This document shows, one piece after another, positions 166 through 11,366 of a stretch of DNA of 11,366 nucleotides (its first letter is position 1; each line of letters begins with the position of its first letter). The DNA lies in the NCBI GenBank assembly GCA_016192545.1, contig JACPTX010000051.1, positions 1-11,366 of the forward strand. Reading direction: 5' to 3'. Source of the DNA: Candidatus Omnitrophota bacterium (GTDB taxonomy: Bacteria; Omnitrophota; Gorgyraeia; Aquiviventales; Aquiviventaceae). Below the pieces are notes generated by a model. The model was given only the letters and a program-made list of their open reading frames with translations. It did not search any database and was not told the origin of the DNA. The position numbers were made by a program, and so were the translations under genes.

Positions 166-1186
166 TTAATGCGCGTGCGGTGTCACCCATGCGGCGTACC
201 CTGTCATCCCGAGGATATACGAGACTGCGGCGATCCCGGCCGCCCACACCACCCACGAGGCCCTGCCCTTCCGGGCGGGCCGGTCCAGCCACGGCACCAG
301 CACGAGCACGGCACCGGCCGCCCCTGTGAGCCCCACCGCGATCAACTCGCCCTCGATGCCGAACACATGACCCGGAAACAGCTTCAGCGTCTGGAACATC
401 CAGAGGAAGTACCACTCGGGCTGGATCCCGACCGGCGTCGGCGCGAAGGGATCCGCCTTCGTGCCACGCGACCACGTCGCGCAGCAGGAAGTTGGGGAAA
501 AAAGGCCTGGACCGGTCGTCCGTCACCGAGAGGGGCTTGCTCATCCCCTGGAGCTGAATCATCACGAGATGGACCGCCAGGAGGGCGAGGAGCCCGGCCG
601 GCAGCACCGCGATATGGAACCAGAAAAATCTCGTGAGCGTGACGTCCCCGACGTCGCTGCCGCCGCGAAGAATCATCTGCATGACCGGCCCCACGACGGG
701 CACGACCCCGGCGATCTCCGTGCCCACCTTCGTCGCAAAGAACGCCAGGGTGTTCCACGGCAGGAGATAGCCGGTGAAGCCGAATCCCAGCAAGAGGAAG
801 AAGAGGAGCACCCCGGTGACCCAGGTGAGCTCGCGCGGCGGGCGGTACGCCTTTAGGAAAAACGTGCTGGCCAGGTGCACCATGGCGCAGAGGATCACGA
901 GGTTCGCCGCCCACGCGTGGACGCTCCGGATGAGCCATCCGAACTCGACCTTCGTCATGATGAAGCGGATGGACTCGAACGCCTCCTGCGCGGAGGGACG
1001 GTAATACAACAGGAGCAGGAGACCGCTGGCGAGCTGAATGCCGATGAGCACGAGGGTCATCCCGCCCCAGTAGTACCAGACGCTGTGGCGGTGGAGGGGG
1101 ACGGTCTTGTGGGTGGCCAGCTCAGCCAACCCGCCGAACTGGTAGCGCTCGCGGAGGAAGGCGCGCAGCCGTTCGATGAGGGCCAT
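166..1186 (-). pseudogene. petB/qcrB-like: Cytochrome b of a bc/b6f-type complex, b6-like with a fused subunit-IV-like C-terminus. The reading frame is interrupted around 455-466 and a roughly 20-aa segment (helix E) appears to be missing. This is either a genuine pseudogene or an assembly/sequencing error.
   Basis: From ATG 1186 the frame reads MALIERL...[24 protein letters not shown] (two His 14 residues apart, helix B)...[15 protein letters not shown]...GYLLPWN...[47 protein letters not shown] (two His 15 residues apart, helix D)...[15 protein letters not shown]. This is a strong cytochrome b6 signature. The protein then continues only in the +1 frame (ORF 166..399 and its upstream extension): [30 protein letters not shown] plus two more hydrophobic helices, i.e. 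the subunit IV / cytochrome b C-terminus with a PEWY motif. Between DVVAW and ADPF there are only about 4 codons, where homologues have a roughly 25-30 aa transmembrane helix. Confidence 0.7.
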
Positions 1187-1191
1187 CGGCC

Positions 1192-1659
1192 TCAGGCGGG
1201 TTTGGAGACGATGATCTCCTCACCCCGCACGTTCACCTGGAAGGCCTCCAGGGGCCGCGGGGGCGGACCGGAGATGACCTGGCCGTTGAGGTCGAACTTG
1301 CCGTTGTGGCACGCGCACCAGATGACGCTGACCTGAGGGTCGTACTGGACGGTGCAGTTGAGGTGGGTGCACACGGCAGAAAACGCTTTGAGCTCGCCTT
1401 GGGGCGTATGGATGAGAATCCCGGGACGGTTGCCGAATCGAAAGACCTTTGCGCTGTTTGTCGCCACTTCCCCGATCTGAGCGGCCACGACGTTTGACAC
1501 TGACGATTCCGCGCCGCGAGGGGGGTAGAGATACCGCACGATGGGATAGAGCGCGGCGCCGAGGAACGCGAGGACGCCTCCCTTGAGCAGGAACCGCAAG
1601 AAGGCTCGCCGGCTAATCGGCTGCGCTGGACACATCAGACGCGTTGCGCCACGCTGCAT
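1192..1659 (-). CDS. petC/qcrA-like: Rieske [2Fe-2S] iron-sulfur subunit of the cytochrome bc complex, Tat-dependent. Alternative starts are GTG 1689 and ATG 1635.
   Basis: Rieske box I CTHLNC and box II CACHNG. There is a twin-arginine motif SRRAFLRF followed by a hydrophobic anchor. GAGGG lies 8 nt upstream of ATG 1659. The stop is 5 nt before the cytochrome b ATG. Confidence 0.9.
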
Positions 1660-1716
1660 CCGGCCTGCCCTCGAGCGCCCGGTGGACACTCATCGTCGAC
1701 CATCATACCATAATGA

Positions 1717-2244
1717 TTACCAGAGCTTGGCGGCTTCTTCCTCAAGACCGGCATAGAGCTCCTGGTAGCGGTCCGGGTATTGCTGTTGAAACTCTTCAAG
1801 CAGGCGCTCCCGGAACGCCTCGAACTCCTCCCGCCGGTCAAGCTTGCGCACCTGGGAGTCGTGGACGAGGAACTCCCAGAGCTGCCTGGCCTCCGAGCCG
1901 TTGATCTGGCTGCCGGGTTTGTGCCACATCACCCTGACGTAGTGCTCCCAGAACGCGGGACTGGCCCATTGGGAATTGACGGCTCGAGCCAGGGTATGGC
2001 ACCGGGAGCACCTCCGCGCGAACAGGGCATACGAGCGCTGCATCTGCGGCGGATAGCCGGACACGTCAATCTCATCCGGACCTAGGTCGTTGGCGTACGG
2101 CCGCTTCGCGGCTTCCTGGATCTGCTCCTGCGTCCGCTGTTCGTCCGGCGACGGCTCTTGGGCGCCGAGGGGCGGCACCCCCCACGCCGTCAGCGCGATC
2201 AGCAGGGGCGCCGCCAGCCACCGGCGCATGCCTCGCCGCGGCAT
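1717..2244 (-). CDS. Monohaem c-type cytochrome, secreted, with an acidic coiled C-terminus. It occupies the ActE-like position at the end of the ACIII/Qrc-like module.
   Basis: Single CSRCH motif. N-terminus MPRRGMRRWLAAPLLIALTAWG resembles a signal peptide. ATG 2244 overlaps the upstream stop (TAATG). The ORF track start at 2256 is a GTG. Confidence 0.75.
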   Translation of the reverse strand: MPRRGMRRWLAAPLLIALTAWGVPPLGAQEPSPDEQRTQEQIQEAAKRPYANDLGPDEIDVSGYPPQMQRSYALFARRCSRCHTLARAVNSQWASPAFWEHYVRVMWHKPGSQINGSEARQLWEFLVHDSQVRKLDRREEFEAFRERLLEEFQQQYPDRYQELYAGLEEEAAKLW

Positions 2245-3608
2245 TAGCGAGACCACTCCCAGGCCGTCTTCGTTGCAGGCGCCGGCGGCGCCTCGCCCTC
2301 AGGCAGATAGGTTGTGAGCCGCTCCACGGTGTCCTGGATTCCCCGCTGCCGGCCCTCCTCCACCTCCCAGACCGAAATGATCGGAAACACCTTGGCGAAG
2401 AGCGTGTACAGCAGGAGGAACGCCGCAAAGGCCCCCGCGGTGATCGCTCCCTCCACCCACGTCGGCGTATAGCCGCTGGTGGGAACGGGCAGCCGCGGGT
2501 TGATGAGCGAAGGCACGACGATGATGAACCGCTCCAGCCACATGCCGACGAGGATGGTGCTCGAGGCCACCACCATGCCCGGAATCGTGCGGGTGGCGGG
2601 CAGGCTCAGGATGACGAGGGGAATGGCGAAACAACAGGCCGCCATGGTCCAGAAGTAGGGCGCGTAGGGCCCGGAGAGCTTGGCCCAGAAAATCGTCATC
2701 TCATCCGGCTCATGTCCGTAGAATGTGGTGAGGTACTCCGCAAAGGTGAAGTAGGTCCACAGGCACGTCATCACCAGCAGGAGGAGGCCGAGGTTCTTGA
2801 AGTGGACCGGCTTGAGGTACGCCTCCAGCCGGTAGGTCTTGCGCAGCACCGCCATCGCGAGGATCAGGGCGGCGATCCCGGAGTAGATCGCGCCCACGAC
2901 AAAATACGGGCCGAAAATGGTGCTATGCCACATCGGCTGAACGGTCATGGCGAAGACCCAGGAGACGACCGTGTGGACCGAGACGGCGATGGGGATGACG
3001 ACGACCGCCAGCACGGCGATCGCCAGCTCCAGCCGGTGCCGCTCGTTCGGCGTGCCCCGCCAGCCCAGCGCCAGGGCACCGTAGAACCATCGCCGCCGCG
3101 GCAGCCGGTCTCTGAGGAGCGCGATGTCCGGAATGAGCGGCAGGTAGAGATAGCAGATGCTGGCTGTCACATAGGTGGTGATGCTCGTGACGTCCCACAG
3201 CAGGGGGGAGCGGAAATTGGGATGCAGGAAGACGTTGAGCGCCCGGTCCGGGCGCCCGAGATCCATGATGATGTTGCCCGCCCCGATAAACAGGACCAGG
3301 ACGGTGATCGTCTCCGCCATGCGCGTGATCGGCCTCCGCCATTCGGCCTGGCAGAGGCGCAGGATCGCCGAGATCAGCGTCCCGGCATGGCTGATGCCGA
3401 TGAAGAATACGAAGTTGGTGATGTAGATGCCCCAGAACACCGGGCGGTTCAGGCCGGTCACGACGAGGCCGTCGCGAAGCTGGTGCACCCAGGCATAGGC
3501 CGCGAAGCCGATGACGGCCAGCAGGAATCCGACGAGCAGGAAAAATGGCCTCGAAAACCGGGTCATCGAGGCGATCAGGTCGGCTTCGAGGTCCCGCGGC
3601 TGCGCCAT
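2244..3608 (-). CDS. NrfD/PsrC-family integral membrane quinone-interacting subunit. About 10 hydrophobic segments, ActC/QrcD/DsrP-like in size.
   Basis: 454 aa and highly hydrophobic, with a WGIYITNFVFFIGISHAG-type NrfD-family motif. It starts 2 nt after the FeS-subunit stop. Confidence 0.85.
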   Translation of the reverse strand: MAQPRDLEADLIASMTRFSRPFFLLVGFLLAVIGFAAYAWVHQLRDGLVVTGLNRPVFWGIYITNFVFFIGISHAGTLISAILRLCQAEWRRPITRMAETITVLVLFIGAGNIIMDLGRPDRALNVFLHPNFRSPLLWDVTSITTYVTASICYLYLPLIPDIALLRDRLPRRRWFYGALALGWRGTPNERHRLELAIAVLAVVVIPIAVSVHTVVSWVFAMTVQPMWHSTIFGPYFVVGAIYSGIAALILAMAVLRKTYRLEAYLKPVHFKNLGLLLLVMTCLWTYFTFAEYLTTFYGHEPDEMTIFWAKLSGPYAPYFWTMAACCFAIPLVILSLPATRTIPGMVVASSTILVGMWLERFIIVVPSLINPRLPVPTSGYTPTWVEGAITAGAFAAFLLLYTLFAKVFPIISVWEVEEGRQRGIQDTVERLTTYLPEGEAPPAPATKTAWEWSR

Positions 3609-3610
3609 CG

Positions 3611-4429
3611 TCAGGCCTCAGCGAGGTAGGTCACTTTGGGTCGCGTCCCCAACTCTTCCTGCAACAGCGAGCGGCGGGGGCTCCGCCCCAGCTGCGACGC
3701 CGCGCTGTTCGGCTCGTCGAGATCGCCGAAGGCAATGGCTCGGGCGGGGCAGACCTGCATGCACGCCGGCACATAGTCCCCCTCGCGCAGGGTCCGTCCG
3801 TCGCTGGCGGCCTGCTCCTTCGCCCGGATGAGCCGGTGGTGGCAAAAGGTGCATTTCTCGGTGACGCCCTTGGGGCGCACCGACACATCGGGGTTGTGCA
3901 TGGCCTCCATCGGCGCGGGCCAGGTGGGCGTCGACCAGTTGAAGAACTTGCAGGTGTAGGGACAGGCGTTGACGCAGTAGCGGCAGCCGATGCACCGGGG
4001 ATAGATTTGGGCGACCAACCCTTCCGGATTTTTGTACGTGGCAAAGACCGGGCAGACCGGGGTGCAGGGCGGCCGATCGCAGTGCTGGCACGGGACGGGC
4101 ATGAGGCGCTGGCGCACCGCCGGGTATTCCCCCTCTGTTGAGGGGAGCAGCGTCATCCACTCGATGATGCGCCCGGCCCGATGCGCCTCGGGACTCGGCA
4201 GCGGCTGGTTGTTCTCCGCCCAGCAGGCGACCACGCAGGCCTGGCAGCCCGTGCACCGATCCAGGTCGATCACCATCCCCCACCGGTGCGGGCGAGCCGC
4301 GACGGCTTGCCCAGGCGCCTGACGGACCGACGCCTCGGCCTTCGACAGACGTCGAAAGAGCGCGAGCGACGCCGCGGCCGCCAGGGCCCGGGCGAGGAAC
4401 GAGCGTCGAGAATAGGCTAGGCCTTCCAT
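3611..4429 (-). CDS. Four-cluster [4Fe-4S] ferredoxin-type electron-transfer subunit (PsrB/NrfC/ActB2/QrcC-like) with its own Tat signal.
   Basis: RRSFLARALAAAASLALF Tat motif. Four Cys clusters: CTGCQACVVAC; CQHCDRPPCTPVCP; CIGCRYCVNACP; CTFCHH...CMQVCP. Its ATG overlaps the upstream gene by 13 nt (ATGGAAGGCCTAG). Confidence 0.9.
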   Translation of the reverse strand: MEGLAYSRRSFLARALAAAASLALFRRLSKAEASVRQAPGQAVAARPHRWGMVIDLDRCTGCQACVVACWAENNQPLPSPEAHRAGRIIEWMTLLPSTEGEYPAVRQRLMPVPCQHCDRPPCTPVCPVFATYKNPEGLVAQIYPRCIGCRYCVNACPYTCKFFNWSTPTWPAPMEAMHNPDVSVRPKGVTEKCTFCHHRLIRAKEQAASDGRTLREGDYVPACMQVCPARAIAFGDLDEPNSAASQLGRSPRRSLLQEELGTRPKVTYLAEA

Positions 4430-6687
4430 ACCTTCACCAGCGTCCCTTGCCAGAACGGCTGCCCGGTTTGCTCATCCAGCCGGCGGCCAACCAGATGAGC
4501 CGGATTGGCGCCGATGTCCTTGGCCCAGCGGCCGCACGCCAGATGGCCAAGCCCAAGGGGCATGGCGACCACGCCTGGCACCACGCCTTCACACCAGCGG
4601 GCCGTGGCCTCCACCTTCCCATGAAGCGATGCGATCCAGATCCGCTCGCCATCGCGGATGCCGAACTGCCGGGCCGTGCTCGGGTGGAGTTCCGCCCACG
4701 TCTCCCACGCCTCGGAGAGGTGGCGGCCGGCGATCTGCTGCAGGAACGGCAGATGCGCGCCGGTCCCCGCAAGGAAGGCCAGGGGCGAGTAGAGATAGAG
4801 CTGTAGGGGAGCGTGCTGCGCCTCGCCACCACCGGCCTCCGCCGAAGCCGTTTCGAGGAGGGTCGTCATGGCGTCCGGGAACAACTCCAGCCGTCCGGAC
4901 GGCGTGCGAAACTCAGCCCACGGGGCGTCTTCCGCGGGCCAGACCGCTCCCCCGCCCAACCGTAGACGCTCCAGCAGCCCCTCGCCGCTCGTTGGAGGCT
5001 TGTCCGCCTCTCGCATCGTCTCGCTCGACCACCTGATCGGCGGAAGCGGCGTCCCGGACTTCGTCTCGTAGAGCGCCTGCGCCCGCTCCTTGACGAGCGG
5101 CTCCACCGAATCCCAGGGGAACGCGCCCGCCACGGGCGGGCCGAGCGCGCGGGCCAGCTGGAGGATCACCTCCTCCAACGCCCGGGCTGCTCCGCGCGGC
5201 GGCACCACCGGAGGGGTGATGTTCACCGCCGCGCGGCCGTCGCTGGTGCAGACGGACGCGAACTGCCACTGCTCCAGCGCGGTCGCCAGCGGCAGCACGA
5301 GGTCCGCGTGGAGCGCCGTCTCATCAAGCATCGACGCGAAGCTCACGATGAACGGCATCCGGCCCAAGGCCTCGACCCACCGCGAGGGCGATGGGCTGAT
5401 GAAGCAGGGGTTGGCCTGGTGGACGCAGAGGATCTCGATGGGCGCCTCGGTCCCATCGAGAAGGTGTTCGGGCAGCCGTTCGGCGTGCGCCAGCCGCTGG
5501 GCCTGCAGGCCCCGCTCGGCGACGTCATCGCGCGCCGGCTCGGGAGGCAGCGAGAGCCCCGGCGGCTCCCAGCGCCGCAGGACGCCGCCGCGCGCATCGA
5601 GGTTCCCCACCAATCCGTTCAGGCTCATGACGGCCCATTGGGTCATCAGATCCGCCCGCGCTCCCACGGCGAGGCCCCGTCTCAGGCCGAACTCCTTCGC
5701 CAGGCGCTGGATGGTTTCCGGAGGAACGCCCGTCCGCTCCGCCACCGCCTCCGGATCGGCGCGGGAGGCGACGAAGCGCGCGAAGGGCTCCAATCCGACG
5801 CTGTTCTGCGCCAGCTGATCATGGATGAGCCGCTCGCGGATCAGCACGTGCGCGATCCCCAGGGCGAGCCACCCGTCCTGCCCAGGCCGAATGGGGATCC
5901 ACTCGTCACTCTTCGCCGCCGTCATGGAGAGCCGCGGTTCCACCTGGACGATGCGCGCCCGCCGATCGCTGCGGCCCTGGCGAAGCCACCCGTATGCGCG
6001 CGAGGCTTCCACCGGCGAGGGATAGGCCTGAAGCCAGTCAAGGCCGAAGGAGAGGAGCAGGTTGGCCTGCGCGAGATCGTAGAGCGGCTCGCCCTCCCGA
6101 TCCACCATCAGTCGAAATGCCTCGGCTGGCAGCTCTCCGGCCGGCGGGCTCAAGACAAGATCGTGCGGGGATCCCCACGCGCGCAGGAAACGCTGGATGA
6201 GCTGCCGGCCGAGACTCCGGGAGGGACCGCTCAGCCAAGCCAAGCGCTGCGGCTCGCCGCGCTGGCGAAGCCCGCGAAGGCGGTCCACGAGCAACGGCAT
6301 CGCCTCCTCCCACGCCACCGGCTCGAAGCGGCCCTCACCCCGCTCGCCCACCCGCCGCAGCGGCTGGAGGAGGCGATCCGGATGGTAGAGCTCGGTGAGG
6401 CCTGCGGCACCTCGCGGACAGAGGGCGCCCTGATTGACCGGATGGGCGGGAAGCCCCTCCAGCTTCACGACTCGGCCTTGCACCACGCGCGCCGCGACGC
6501 CGCAGCCGGCCGGACACAGTTGACAGACGGAAGGCGCCCACTGCTCCGGCGCCCTCGGCAACAGCTCTTCGTCCGCGGCGGGAGGCGGCAAGCCCAGCAG
6601 CCGATACTTGATGAGATCCTCCACGGCCCCTGCGGTGGTCGCGATGAGGCCGGTCAGTCCAAGAAAGGCGCGCCGGGTCAGTTCCAT
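4417..6687 (-). CDS. Molybdopterin-oxidoreductase-family large subunit (PsrA/PhsA-size, ActB1/QrcB-like). Tat-exported, with an N-terminal FS0 [4Fe-4S] motif.
   Basis: MELTRRAFLGL Tat signal. C-x2-C-x3-C-x27-C-PRG (CQLCPAGC...CPRG). VAWEEAM and C-terminal GIRDGERIWIAS...GVVAMPLG motifs are typical of the family. GGAG lies 10 nt upstream of the ATG. There is no Cys between residue 91 and about 420, so the usual Cys Mo ligand is absent. Confidence 0.85.
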   Translation of the reverse strand: MELTRRAFLGLTGLIATTAGAVEDLIKYRLLGLPPPAADEELLPRAPEQWAPSVCQLCPAGCGVAARVVQGRVVKLEGLPAHPVNQGALCPRGAAGLTELYHPDRLLQPLRRVGERGEGRFEPVAWEEAMPLLVDRLRGLRQRGEPQRLAWLSGPSRSLGRQLIQRFLRAWGSPHDLVLSPPAGELPAEAFRLMVDREGEPLYDLAQANLLLSFGLDWLQAYPSPVEASRAYGWLRQGRSDRRARIVQVEPRLSMTAAKSDEWIPIRPGQDGWLALGIAHVLIRERLIHDQLAQNSVGLEPFARFVASRADPEAVAERTGVPPETIQRLAKEFGLRRGLAVGARADLMTQWAVMSLNGLVGNLDARGGVLRRWEPPGLSLPPEPARDDVAERGLQAQRLAHAERLPEHLLDGTEAPIEILCVHQANPCFISPSPSRWVEALGRMPFIVSFASMLDETALHADLVLPLATALEQWQFASVCTSDGRAAVNITPPVVPPRGAARALEEVILQLARALGPPVAGAFPWDSVEPLVKERAQALYETKSGTPLPPIRWSSETMREADKPPTSGEGLLERLRLGGGAVWPAEDAPWAEFRTPSGRLELFPDAMTTLLETASAEAGGGEAQHAPLQLYLYSPLAFLAGTGAHLPFLQQIAGRHLSEAWETWAELHPSTARQFGIRDGERIWIASLHGKVEATARWCEGVVPGVVAMPLGLGHLACGRWAKDIGANPAHLVGRRLDEQTGQPFWQGTLVKVWKA

Positions 6688-6920
6688 CGACGTGGTGGCT
6701 CCGGGGCGCCGCCGGCCTGCTGGGCCAGGAAGCGGTCAATGGCCTGGATGACCAGCCGGCTCTTTGGCAGCGATTCACCCCGCTCCCACCGGTTCAGGCT
6801 GGAGTACGCGACCCCCAATTGATGGGCGCAATACTCCTGCGACCACCCCCTGGCTCGACGGAGGGCCGTCACCTGTTTAATGGCGCGTTTCAGCCGCGTC
6901 GTCTGCGTATCCATCTGCAT
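6678..6920 (-). CDS. XRE-family helix-turn-helix transcriptional regulator (80 aa).
   Basis: GWSQEYCAHQLGVAYSSLNRWERGESLPKSRLVIQAIDRFL is a classic HTH_3 pattern. Its stop overlaps the ATG of the downstream Mo-family subunit (ATGGAACTGA). Confidence 0.7.
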   Translation of the reverse strand: MQMDTQTTRLKRAIKQVTALRRARGWSQEYCAHQLGVAYSSLNRWERGESLPKSRLVIQAIDRFLAQQAGGAPEPPRRWN

Positions 6921-6997
6921 AGCATAAGATACAACACATGGGCATCAGAAAAACATGACATACGTCATACAGGATGGCGGCGCGCCCGCGCACGCGG
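6921..6997 (-). promoter_or_regulatory. AT-rich intergenic region carrying the inverted repeat ATGAC-N4-GTCAT. Candidate promoter/operator for the XRE-led operon.
   Basis: This is the only AT-rich stretch in the window. It sits between the pentahaem cytochrome stop and the XRE start. 6955..6968 reads atgacatacgtcat, and ACATG occurs twice as a direct repeat. Confidence 0.3.
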
Positions 6998-7522
6998 CTA
7001 CCGATGGCAGGCGAGGCAGTCGGTGGTGACCTGCCGCTGCCGATGGCACTCCAGGCAGCGGTCCATCGTGAGGGGAGCGGCCTGGCGGACGACGGGGGCC
7101 GTCACTTGGCTCAGGTCCCCGTGGCAGAGGGCGCAGTCAAGTTGCGCGAGCGTCACGTGGCGCCGGTGCGAGAAATACGCGTGCCCGGGCACCCGGTAGA
7201 CCTGCTTCCAGGGGATCTCCTCGCCGCGCGCGGCCACCTGCTCCAGCTGCGGCCCGACTCGGTCCAGCACCGGCGTCTGGACGCCGACCGCCGCGTGGCA
7301 GTCCACGCAGTCCGTGACCGCCGGGACGCCGGCGAAGGTCTCCGTTTCGGCCTGCGCATGGCAGGTCACGCAGGTGAGCCCCGCCGCGAGATGCTTCTGG
7401 TGGTTGAACGGGATGAGCGGCTGGACCGCCTGAGGGCGCTGGCTGGCGCGCTCGCGCATCGCGTAGAACGTCGTGCCCGCGAGGACCGCCAGGGCGACCA
7501 GCAGCAGGAGGCGCTCCCTCAT
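6998..7522 (-). CDS. Membrane-anchored pentahaem c-type cytochrome built from two c3/c7-like units. Candidates are ActA/QrcA-like or a CymA-like quinol-side partner.
   Basis: N-terminal hydrophobic helix MRERLLLLVALAVLAGTTFYA. Five CXXCH motifs (CVTCH, CVDCH, CALCH, CLECH, CLACH). Two F-x-H-x2-H motifs (FNHQKH, FSHRRH) precede haem sites. Confidence 0.85.
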   Translation of the reverse strand: MRERLLLLVALAVLAGTTFYAMRERASQRPQAVQPLIPFNHQKHLAAGLTCVTCHAQAETETFAGVPAVTDCVDCHAAVGVQTPVLDRVGPQLEQVAARGEEIPWKQVYRVPGHAYFSHRRHVTLAQLDCALCHGDLSQVTAPVVRQAAPLTMDRCLECHRQRQVTTDCLACHR

Positions 7523-7543: not shown

Positions 7544-8428
7544 CTAGGACGTGGTGGCGTGAGGTGGAGGGGGGCTCTTCGGAACACCTTGCGCAAGCGC
7601 CGTGAGGCCGGTCATCGCTCCCAGGTTCATGGTCTCCACGGCACTGGAAGGCACGATGATGATGGTGGAGCTCTGACGCATGCCCTCCAGCAGGATGTTC
7701 ATGGCGCGCAGGTGCAGGGCCGTCGGGTTCTCCGCGTACGCGCGGGAGGCTTCTTCGAAGCTGCGGGCCACCTGGCGCTCCGAGTCTCCCAGGATGATCC
7801 GCGCCTGCCGTTCGCGCTCGGCCTGGGCCTGCATCGACATCGCGTTCTGGAGCGCCTCGGGGATCTTCACGTCCCGGATCTCGACGGACAGGGCCTTGAT
7901 GCCCCACGGCTCGGTGCGGTGGTCGATCGTCTCGCACAGCAGCACGTCAATCTTGTCCCTTCCGATGAGCATCTCCGCCAGGTCCGTCTTGCCGATCACG
8001 TCCCGCAGGGCGGTTTGCGAGGCCCAGGCGATCGCCTCGCGGTAATTCTCGACTTCCAGCGCCGCTTTGATCGAGTCCACCACCCGCCAGAACAGCACGG
8101 CGTCCACGTCAACCGGCACGCTGTCCTTCGTCAAGGTCTGCTCGGCGGCGAATGGTGTGGTGATGGTCCGCAGGTCGATCCAGTGGGAGATGGCGTCGAG
8201 GATCGGCACGATCAGGAAGAACCCGGGCCCCTTGAGCCGGTGGAACCTTCCCAACCGCAAGACCACCGCCTTCTGCCACTGCTGGGCCACGCGGATCGCC
8301 GGGCTCAGCAGCAGCCCGACGGCGACCATGCCCACCGTCACCCACGGATTCCCGGTCGCCGCCCCTCCGACGAAGCCTACGGCGACGAGTGCGAGAAAGA
8401 GCAGGATCGCCAATGGGTGCGTCCCCAT
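7544..8428 (-). CDS. SPFH/band-7 (stomatin-prohibitin-flotillin-HflK/C) family membrane protein.
   Basis: N-terminal transmembrane segment followed by QQWQKAVVLRLGRFHRLKGPGFFLIVPILD...IDLRT and a long Ala/Glu/Arg-rich coiled region. AAGGAGG lies 9 nt upstream of the ATG. Confidence 0.85.
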   Translation of the reverse strand: MGTHPLAILLFLALVAVGFVGGAATGNPWVTVGMVAVGLLLSPAIRVAQQWQKAVVLRLGRFHRLKGPGFFLIVPILDAISHWIDLRTITTPFAAEQTLTKDSVPVDVDAVLFWRVVDSIKAALEVENYREAIAWASQTALRDVIGKTDLAEMLIGRDKIDVLLCETIDHRTEPWGIKALSVEIRDVKIPEALQNAMSMQAQAERERQARIILGDSERQVARSFEEASRAYAENPTALHLRAMNILLEGMRQSSTIIIVPSSAVETMNLGAMTGLTALAQGVPKSPPPPHATTS

Positions 8429-10537: not shown

Positions 10538-11366
10538 TTAATAGCGCAGGTGCTCGTCAAAGTTCGACCCGTGCGGGGCCGTATGACAGCCCGCGCTGAA
10601 ACACGTCCCCTGATTCAGCCGGCCCGAATGGCTCGACCCCCCGATCGTCGGGAAGTTGGTCTGGGTATGGCAGCGCAGGCAGAGGTTGACATCCCGCACC
10701 AGCAGCATCTTTTCGTGAATCGAGCCGTGGACCTTATGGCAGGTCGTGCAACCCTCCCGCAGCGCCTCGTGTTCCCACACGAACGGCCCGCGCTGCTCCT
10801 TGTGGCATCGGAAGCACGCCTCATTGATGTCTTTCAGCGACGTGGCGGACCACGGCCGGACGTCCGGGGCGTGGGCGTTGTGGCAATCCGCGCAACTCAT
10901 CTTGCCCTCAAGCAGCGGGTGGTGGTAGGGCAATCGAAACTCCGCTTTCTTATCTAAATGGCAAGCGAAGCAGGTGCTGGGGTCTTTGCGCGGATTAATG
11001 ATGCCGCCCACCCCGCGGCCTCCCCCGGCCTCGACGTGCAGGCTGCCGGGCCCGTGGCACATCTCACAGCCCTGCCCTTTGACGTTCTCGTCGGTAATCC
11101 TGATCCTGGCGTGGGTCGACTGCTGGAACTCTTGGTACTTCTTTTCGTGGCATGCCCGGCAGGTTTCCGTGCCGACGTATTCGGCTTCCGGTGGCTCGAC
11201 CGGCTTGGCGGACTCCTCGGCGGACTCGGCCCATGCCTCAGGCGCGACTAACCGACTGAGATACGCTTGCAACTGGCCTGCGGCATCGGGTGACTGCCGC
11301 GAAGAGTGCGGAGGGCTTTCTTCGACGTCGTTCTTCTTGATCGGCGCGACACCCGCCGGCACAGAC
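10538..11366 (-). CDS. Multihaem c-type cytochrome with at least 8 haems in the window. The N-terminus lies beyond the right window edge. MtrA/PioA/OmaB-like periplasmic partner of the downstream beta-barrel.
   Basis: CRACH, CEMCH, CFACH, CADCH, CFRCH, CTTCH, CLRCH plus CFSAGCH (CX4CH), spaced about 25-30 aa apart with interleaved His. The ORF is open to the window edge; the listed 'M' at 11362 is a GTG. Confidence 0.9.
   Translation of the reverse strand, partial: SVPAGVAPIKKNDVEESPPHSSRQSPDAAGQLQAYLSRLVAPEAWAESAEESAKPVEPPEAEYVGTETCRACHEKKYQEFQQSTHARIRITDENVKGQGCEMCHGPGSLHVEAGGGRGVGGIINPRKDPSTCFACHLDKKAEFRLPYHHPLLEGKMSCADCHNAHAPDVRPWSATSLKDINEACFRCHKEQRGPFVWEHEALREGCTTCHKVHGSIHEKMLLVRDVNLCLRCHTQTNFPTIGGSSHSGRLNQGTCFSAGCHTAPHGSNFDEHLRY

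Follow-up and report, generated by a model that had tools for sequence, protein, structure and literature searches.

An ACIII/Qrc-like quinone-interacting module of non-canonical composition beside an Mtr-like conduit in a Candidatus Omnitrophota bacterium

The stretch of DNA analysed here (hereafter the window) comprises the 11,366 nucleotides of contig JACPTX010000051.1, from the Candidatus Omnitrophota bacterium assembly GCA_016192545.1. All its real genes lie closely packed on the minus strand, and six of them, confirmed at 1717-7522, encode a pentahaem cytochrome c, an XRE-family regulator, a large subunit of the molybdenum (Mo) enzyme family, an iron-sulfur (FeS) subunit, an NrfD-family membrane subunit and a monohaem cytochrome c. 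These six genes probably specify a periplasm-facing, quinone-interacting module of the lineage of alternative complex III (ACIII) and the quinone reductase complex (Qrc), linked to extracellular electron transfer. The module is neither ACIII proper nor Qrc proper; it is a recognisable variant and not a new type of machine. Its distinctive features are FS0 cysteines kept together with the lack of a Mo ligand and of a [3Fe-4S] site, twin-arginine translocation (Tat) signals on two subunits, a monohaem cytochrome not recognisable as ActE, the position of the cassette inside an Mtr-like/bc operon and a lineage-specific XRE insertion. A first-pass annotation of the bare sequence had proposed an ACIII/Qrc-like module, and all the subunits and domains that it named were recovered at their coordinates with Pfam, NCBIfam and motif counts. 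Its reading stood for the FeS and membrane subunits, which score best against ActB and ActC, but the large subunit proved ambiguous and the monohaem cytochrome is not detectably ActE. Four points had escaped it: the FS0 cysteines of the large subunit, the FeS subunit predicted to hold [4Fe-4S] clusters throughout, the lack of ActE resemblance in the monohaem cytochrome, and the MtrAB-like pair with the SPFH gene just upstream.

The structural references were the ACIII complexes of Rhodothermus marinus, Flavobacterium johnsoniae and Roseiflexus/Chloroflexus (PDB 6F0K, 6BTM, 6LOD and 8K9E). Against the PDB, the FeS subunit matched the C-terminal half of ActB at 146-209.5 bits (best 6f0k_B, 209.5), ArrB at 137 and PsrB at 107, and it carries the ActB-type insertion NPDV(T/S)VRxxGVxEKCTFC. 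It has 17 cysteines, 16 of them in four ferredoxin-type groups, and all 16 cluster cysteines are conserved. Canonical ActB reads CIGTRYC, with Thr at the tenth Cys position, whereas the window and nearly all its relatives read CIGCRYC; considering this replacement, four [4Fe-4S] clusters and no [3Fe-4S] cluster are predicted. ActB and QrcC are described as binding one [3Fe-4S] and three [4Fe-4S] clusters (PMC8076601), and in ActB these are fused to a cofactor-less Mo-like domain; in the window the two parts are separate genes and the Mo-like part has the FS0 cysteines. At the level of motifs, FS0 plus a transfer subunit with four [4Fe-4S] clusters is what Psr, Phs, Arr and Ttr enzymes have. 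The cofactor set predicted for the window, five [4Fe-4S] clusters together with the five haems of the pentahaem cytochrome and the single one of the monohaem cytochrome, would thus lie between that of a Psr/Arr enzyme and that of ACIII/Qrc. Near the N-terminus of the FeS subunit there is a Tat motif, SRRSFLARAL. A Tat signal of its own was seen only in the Omnitrophota pair, in two Armatimonadota-like loci and in one Acidobacteria locus, and the FeS proteins of over 85 % of the family have nothing ahead of the first cluster motif.

The membrane subunit resembles ActC most clearly. The four solved ActC chains scored 229-246 bits with it, ActF chains scored 23-53 bits, and PsrC gave no match in the same PDB sequence search. 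About 10 hydrophobic helices were found in it, in contrast to the 8-9 helices of a PsrC/NrfD-type anchor. In a neighbour-joining (NJ) tree, which was computed without support values, the subunit falls in a clade sister to canonical ActC together with a few true ACIII copies, and the NrfD subunits that accompany the Cys-type, apparently catalytic large subunits described below form a separate basal clade. The first-pass annotation had named clustering with the catalytic Psr/Phs/Ttr systems as the result that would overturn its reading. Neither the FeS subunit (by PDB scores) nor the membrane subunit (by scores and the NJ tree) sides with these systems, although the large subunit is nearer to ArrA and PsrA.

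As ActA, which is a membrane-anchored penta- or hexahaem cytochrome c, the 174-aa cytochrome of the window is anchored in the membrane and has five haem motifs, and ActA chains of the PDB match it at 73-89.5 bits (best 8k9e_A, 89.5). The monohaem cytochrome shows no detectable similarity to its counterpart in ACIII. It has no Pfam or NCBIfam model, but a profile built from its homologues matches cytochrome cz (PscC; 3a9f, 7uea_C) and SorB, and the AlphaFold2 (AF2) model (pLDDT 86.8) had SorB and cytochrome cz as its top Foldseek matches, with a probability of 0.99. Its identification as ActE was rejected, since phmmer against the PDB, the profile search and Foldseek all failed to give an ActE match; sequence and model suggest that it may be a functional analogue of ActE. 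Cys83, Cys86, His87 and Met110 are invariant among the homologues, which would fit a His/Met class-I cytochrome, a type that usually has a high redox potential. Homologues are numerous (649 cluster representatives at E <= 1e-3 in 1.84 billion proteins), and in Armatimonadota relatives one is encoded ahead of the ActA-like gene, on its upstream side. Only the closest clades thus have the monohaem cytochrome as part of the module.

The large subunit begins with MELTRRAFLGL and therein has the Tat motif TRRAFLGL. ArrA (196 bits) and PsrA (138 bits) align with it over all domains, while ActB (40-76 bits) does so over the N-terminus only, and on these PDB scores its assignment is ambiguous between ActB and ArrA/PsrA. 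In the ligand region, which aligned without gaps and with high posterior probability, ArrA reads HSSVCAEA and PsrA SVSLCTAP versus SPPAGELP in the window, and Ala183 occupies the column of the Mo-ligand Cys of both. Catalytic enzymes of the Psr/Phs/Arr/Ttr type bind Mo or W through Cys, Sec, Ser or Asp. We surveyed this column in 87 large subunits from 84 loci (loci and contigs are cited here by L numbers). Cys was present in five (L013, L022, L026, L042 and L079; typically HSSICADG), none of which has an ActA-like neighbour; conversely, Cys was absent from all 33 relatives with an ActA-like neighbour, where the column holds W, T, L, S, A, M and other residues. The separate basal NrfD clade mentioned above contains the partners of the Cys-bearing L013, L022 and L042.

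By contrast with the ligand, the FS0 cysteines C55, C58, C62 and C90 are invariant in an alignment of 30 homologues, and all four are found in 85 of the 87 surveyed proteins, the exceptions being one N-terminally cut open reading frame (ORF) and one protein in which Gly replaces the fourth Cys. Equally invariant is the CP(K/R)G motif that follows FS0, and the motifs KADEWIPIxPG and ADxxLPxxxxxE, common to PsrA and ArrA, are also conserved in the family. The Cys-bearing relatives are about 37-39 % identical to the large subunit of the window, whose C-terminal two thirds diverge from ArrA far more than theirs do. The NCBIfam scores go in the same direction: the ArrA and PhsA models give 467 and 390 in a Cys-type relative versus 200 and 227 in the window (cut-offs 1600 for ArrA and 694 for PhsA). 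The QrcB model gives about 290-340 on every member of the family, and 'QrcB-like' was rejected as a specific label because that model scores equally on the Cys-bearing relatives.

Two further forms of the large subunit were seen. A Chloroflexota branch (L032, L033, L037, L041, L043, L045 and about 30 more loci) has Asn at the Mo-ligand position, in the motif SLN(I/V)EAAKL; it keeps FS0, has no ActA-like gene, and its ActC-like subunit is longer (~525 aa). In the Anaerolineae locus L026 (4265-8686) an intact Cys motif, HNSICAAA, goes with a membrane subunit that is ActC-like and not PsrC-like, and this locus may be an intermediate between catalytic and non-catalytic forms.

Directly upstream of the module there are an SPFH gene and a putative porin-cytochrome pair. 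The barrel protein of the pair matched no Pfam family even at E = 10. Its AF2 model (pLDDT 89.7) had MtrB of the Shewanella Mtr complex (6r2q_B) as the top Foldseek match, with E = 1.4e-11 and TM-scores of 0.61/0.65, and the next matches were TonB-dependent receptors at about 0.4. More than 120 homologues of the barrel were found, and every one with a named source is from Omnitrophota. The neighbouring cytochrome shows seven CxxCH and one CxxxxCH motifs in the 274 aa that lie inside the window. The window has, in this way, the pairing of an MtrAB-type conduit, an MtrB-fold barrel beside an MtrA/DmsE-family cytochrome, although the cytochrome is incomplete and its TIGR03508 score is below the cut-off. 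A multihaem cytochrome gene followed by the barrel gene was present in four of four homologous Omnitrophota loci (L001, L085, L086 and L087); the literature searched contained no account of such a pair.

Comparison of the loci showed how the module is placed. In L085 the genes for Rieske, cytochrome b and two multihaem cytochromes come straight after the porin-cytochrome pair, and the locus has neither an SPFH gene nor any ACIII-like gene. L001 has the order of the window, without the XRE gene, and then four more cytochromes, one of which has a Ni_hydr_CYTB membrane domain, a domain type reported for CbcL (PMC6295460). In L088, a short contig, the order SPFH-pentahaem-Mo-FeS is kept, also without XRE. 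Taking these gene orders together, the SPFH gene and the five structural genes behave as an inserted cassette of about 7 kb, which in the Omnitrophota lineage sits between the porin-cytochrome conduit and the bc-type operon. The SPFH gene adjoins the module in L001, L088, L072 and about 10 Chloroflexota loci (L034, L044, L046, L050, L056, L058, L062, L067 and L070 are among the SPFH-neighbour loci), so that the adjacency spans Omnitrophota, Acidobacteriota and many Chloroflexota. By a rough estimate, which assumes few SPFH copies per genome, this is far above chance, and it suggests a scaffold role for the SPFH protein. The MtrAB-like pair and the SPFH gene give the module a functional context. 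From the MtrB fold, the DmsE/MtrA-family cytochrome, the synteny and the proximity of the Rieske/cytochrome b genes, we infer a link between the quinone pool and extracellular electron transfer.

[quoted passage not shown] The Tat-exported FeS subunit, with its four [4Fe-4S] clusters, would then carry electrons to the membrane-anchored pentahaem cytochrome and the His/Met monohaem cytochrome. The large subunit would most likely be a non-catalytic scaffold which has lost the Mo ligand, and presumably the cofactor with it, and has kept FS0. Provided that the subunits assemble into one complex, we infer that the module passes electrons, in one direction or the other, between the quinone pool and cytochromes of the periplasm or the outer membrane. 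Inserted with its SPFH scaffold gene between the MtrA/MtrB-like conduit and the Rieske/cytochrome b operon, the cassette would join the quinone pool to extracellular electron transfer, for the reduction or the oxidation of metals or minerals, and may couple it to energy conservation.

Several observations weigh against this proposal. In a pure scaffold one would not expect FS0, the invariant CP(K/R)G and the motifs in common with PsrA and ArrA to be conserved. The Mo-bis(pyranopterin guanine dinucleotide) cofactor (Mo-bisPGD) can be bound without a protein ligand, as in arsenite oxidase. An FeS subunit with all-[4Fe-4S] clusters resembles PsrB, ArrB and DsrO and not ActB or QrcC, and the tree of the membrane subunit has no support values. 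As regards the setting, most Omnitrophota with the porin-cytochrome pair have no cassette, which is therefore not required for the conduit, and the cytochrome b gene of the window itself is frameshifted.

Considering the first of these points, the module could be a catalytic Mo/W-bisPGD enzyme derived from Psr/Arr and acting on a periplasmic substrate, with a metal that has no protein ligand, with FS0 feeding or draining the site and with the cytochromes as an extra entry or exit of electrons. Several features speak for such an enzyme: the invariance of the four FS0 cysteines with the following CP(K/R)G, the retention of the motifs shared with PsrA/ArrA and of domain IV, five [4Fe-4S] clusters that would make a complete Psr-type wire, and the Tat signal of the large subunit. 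The alignment with ArrA and PsrA over all domains and the closeness of the Cys-bearing enzymes agree with it as well, and compared with PsrABC, PhsABC and ArrAB(C) (PDB 2VPZ and 6CZ7) the window shares the FS0 cysteines, a Tat signal and the four complete Cys groups of the FeS subunit. The ligand column and its neighbours, however, vary even among close relatives (A, S, T, M), the loss of Cys and an ActA-like cytochrome neighbour go together, and the C-terminal two thirds have drifted from ArrA. Moreover, ActB1-like proteins with FS0 are already known from ACIII-like clusters (PMC4643136), the Pfam scan revealed no cofactor chaperone gene in the operon, and the anchor has 10 ActC-like helices instead of the eight of PsrC and is accompanied by extra cytochromes. 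On balance we regard a catalytic enzyme of this kind as unlikely. A related idea is that the large subunit is not inert, either because it holds a ligand-free Mo/W-bisPGD, as arsenite oxidase does, or because it has another redox role, and that the complex is a new catalytic or bifurcating node; we consider this improbable. If true, an SPFH-scaffolded node would couple an Mtr-like conduit, the quinone pool and a Rieske/cytochrome b complex, for example in mineral-dependent reverse electron flow.

It could also be thought that the proposed ACIII/Qrc-type variant is simply a canonical ACIII, a menaquinol:cytochrome c oxidoreductase feeding a terminal oxidase, whose ActD and ActF are encoded elsewhere in the genome. 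The ActA-, ActB2- and ActC-like subunits with a monohaem cytochrome closing an Act-like gene order speak for it. The window also has in common with ACIII a Mo-family large protein without the Mo-ligand Cys and the ActB-type insertion. Split actB genes are no obstacle either, since they are known (PMC4643136). But there is no ActD or ActF ORF in the window and none was called in the 10 kb downstream of the module in the syntenic relative L001, and relatives across phyla likewise have a single NrfD-like gene. The absence noted in the first-pass annotation is therefore real but not exceptional, being the rule across the family. Furthermore, the FeS subunit has Cys where the Thr of ActB gives [3Fe-4S], the monohaem cytochrome resembles SorB and cytochrome cz and cannot be recognised as ActE, the NJ tree keeps the membrane subunit out of the clade of canonical ActC, separate genes encode the large and the FeS parts and both products have a Tat signal of their own, and there are no oxidase genes near the module in the window or in L001. 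A canonical ACIII is thus very unlikely.

A related published arrangement is that of the ACIII-like clusters actAB1B2CDEF of the neutrophilic iron oxidisers Ferriphaselus, Gallionella, Sideroxydans and Mariprofundus, in which actB1 and actB2 are split and actB1 has the motif CX2CX3CX27C (PMC4643136). The window shares with them the split B1/B2 with FS0, and a role in iron-linked electron transport was proposed for these clusters; hence the separate large and FeS genes pointed out in the first-pass annotation, whose two Tat motifs were seen, have a precedent as far as the split is concerned. Unlike the window, by their published description, these clusters keep actD, actE and actF, and they have not been reported beside a porin-cytochrome pair or a Rieske/cytochrome b operon. 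ACIII-like complexes have also been proposed for iron reduction in MBNT15 (PMC9386147). In a catalogue of NrfD-containing complexes none has the exact composition of the window (PMC8076601), and the literature searched held no description of the cluster in Omnitrophota.

As for QrcABCD of Desulfovibrio vulgaris, the window shares with it a multihaem cytochrome, a Mo-like large protein, an FeS protein and a single 10-helix NrfD-like subunit, with all redox subunits periplasmic. An orthologue of this cytochrome c3:menaquinone oxidoreductase for periplasmic hydrogen or formate oxidation is nevertheless extremely improbable: the four-subunit ABCD logic is there and QrcA, QrcB and QrcC are the best NCBIfam models, but all four scores are below their cut-offs (QrcA 79.9/180 on the pentahaem cytochrome, QrcB 302.2/440 on the large subunit, QrcC 271.4/400 on the FeS subunit and QrcD 48.4/570 on the membrane subunit), the QrcB model is unspecific, the QrcD match is poor where that to ActC is strong, there are five haems and not six, 16 FeS cysteines predict four [4Fe-4S] clusters against the 1x[3Fe-4S] + 3x[4Fe-4S] of QrcC, FS0 is invariant while QrcB is reported to hold no redox cofactor (PMC13059093), and no hydrogenase or formate dehydrogenase gene is nearby. 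Both QrcB and ActB have been described as cofactor-less Mo-like proteins (PMC6303296, PMC13059093).

The features of the window are collected in Table 1. Within the module the intergenic distances range from -13 to +77 nt, and the XRE gene ends 10 nt inside the large-subunit gene. A scan of the window for promoters and terminators gave counts at or below the shuffle expectation and was uninformative; the close spacing and the lack of a terminator-like excess fit a single operon. The Logan contigs L002-L004 are near-identical to the window (99.9 %). Identical gene order recurs in the independent assemblies L001-L004 and L088, apart from XRE, which shows that it is not a chance pattern of ORFs.

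Table 1. Genes of the window, with positions, strand and the basis of each assignment
Feature	Position	Strand	Basis
MtrA/DmsE-family multihaem cytochrome, incomplete at window end	10538-11366	-	NCBIfam TIGR03508 160.9 bits, cut-off 192
MtrB-like outer-membrane beta-barrel, 691 aa	8447-10522	-	AF2 model and Foldseek
SPFH/Band-7 membrane protein, 294 aa, cassette member	7544-8428	-	Pfam Band_7, E = 1e-33
ActA/QrcA-like membrane-anchored pentahaem cytochrome c, 174 aa	6998-7522	-	Five CxxCH, one N-terminal transmembrane (TM) helix, PDB ActA matches
XRE-family helix-turn-helix protein, 80 aa	6678-6920	-	Pfam HTH_3, E = 2.3e-8
Mo-bisPGD-family large subunit, Tat-exported, 756 aa	4417-6687	-	Pfam Molybdop_Fe4S4, Molybdopterin, Molydop_binding
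Four-cluster FeS subunit, Tat-exported, ActB2/QrcC-like architecture, 272 aa	3611-4429	-	SRRSFL motif, 16 cluster Cys, ActB match
NrfD-family quinone-interacting membrane subunit, ActC-like, 454 aa	2244-3608	-	Pfam NrfD, ~10 TM segments, ActC matches
Periplasmic monohaem class-I cytochrome c with C-terminal helical extension, 179 aa	1717-2256	-	Single CSRCH, profile and Foldseek matches
Rieske [2Fe-2S] subunit	1192-1689	-	Pfam Rieske, E = 1.7e-13; PetC-type TM anchor
Cytochrome b, fused b6/subunit-IV type, frameshifted	166-1186	-	Three-frame translation; BLAST vs L002
Further multihaem cytochrome, start only	from 151 to window end	-	

The XRE gene, which the first-pass annotation had counted among the differences from the textbook ACIII operon, is real. 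It is present in L002-L004 but not at the corresponding position in L001 and L088, and the insertion is specific to the species-level lineage of the window. Upstream of it, the 77-nt spacer 6921-6997 is strikingly AT-rich in a genome of about 67 % GC, and a short inverted repeat, ATGAC-GTAT-GTCAT, was read in it by eye; the spacer may be an internal promoter or operator that arrived with the insertion.

The Rieske and cytochrome b genes follow the module directly. This had been listed in the first-pass annotation as a departure from the textbook operon; the genes are there, yet the association is conserved and not an oddity, since Armatimonadota, Thermodesulfobacteriota and others likewise have such genes no more than 10 kb away from the module. 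Compared with the 99.9 % identical L002, in which cytochrome b is intact at 358 aa, the window is short of 56 bp. The junction of this deletion is near 464-466, it is flanked by CCA microhomology, and helix E (VLVLGLVLCLSVYWPATL) is removed. Either the deletion truly exists, as a variant of the strain or a pseudogene, or the metagenome-assembled genome is misassembled at this point. In L005 (Armatimonadota; 12671-17948) and L017 (Thermodesulfobacteriota; 17637-22211), the module is followed by a 590-650-aa protein, a split cytochrome b6/subunit-IV-like pair, Rieske and multihaem cytochromes. From a reading of its N-terminus, the 590-650-aa protein is a putative GltD-like FeS flavoprotein, and we take the whole arrangement to resemble the unusual Rieske/cytochrome b complexes of anammox bacteria.

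The distribution of the family was followed with a pattern scan in which each GTDB species was represented by a single genome. At least 597 stretches with the Mo-FeS-NrfD core were confirmed, in Armatimonadota, Thermodesulfobacteriota, Chloroflexota, Planctomycetota, Acidobacteriota, Ignavibacteria, Nitrospirota, Binatia, Methylomirabilota and others. The Mo-FeS-NrfD triplet is constant, and the ActA-like gene is found in the Cys-less, non-Chloroflexota branches. A second NrfD-like gene, of the ActF type, is rare across the family, a single one being usual. A second pair of FeS and NrfD genes was observed directly upstream of the ActA-like gene in seven Thermodesulfobacteriota loci (L008, L010, L011, L017, L019, L020 and L023). 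The second pair scores about 70 bits against the NrfD subunit of the window, and in L017, which was read in detail, it is preceded by a tetrahaem cytochrome gene. It may be the DsrOhPh-tetrahaem locus discussed for cable bacteria (PMC13047784). Both this cable-bacteria locus and the system of a preprint on extracellular electron transfer in peat were considered for the window and rejected as different systems.

The Omnitrophota are abundant and almost wholly uncultured, and their energy metabolism is poorly known. For them the operon provides a concrete and testable wiring diagram, which joins an outer-membrane conduit, an ACIII/Qrc-like quinone module and a bc-type complex. Taking into account its FS0 cysteines, the loss of the Mo ligand, the four predicted [4Fe-4S] clusters and the ActC-like anchor, the clade appears to stand between the catalytic Psr/Arr enzymes and the cofactor-less ACIII/Qrc complexes, and it could show how molybdoenzymes became pure modules for electron transfer and energy coupling. 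As the proteins encoded in these hundreds of stretches are uncharacterised, a single biochemical study would annotate many genomes.

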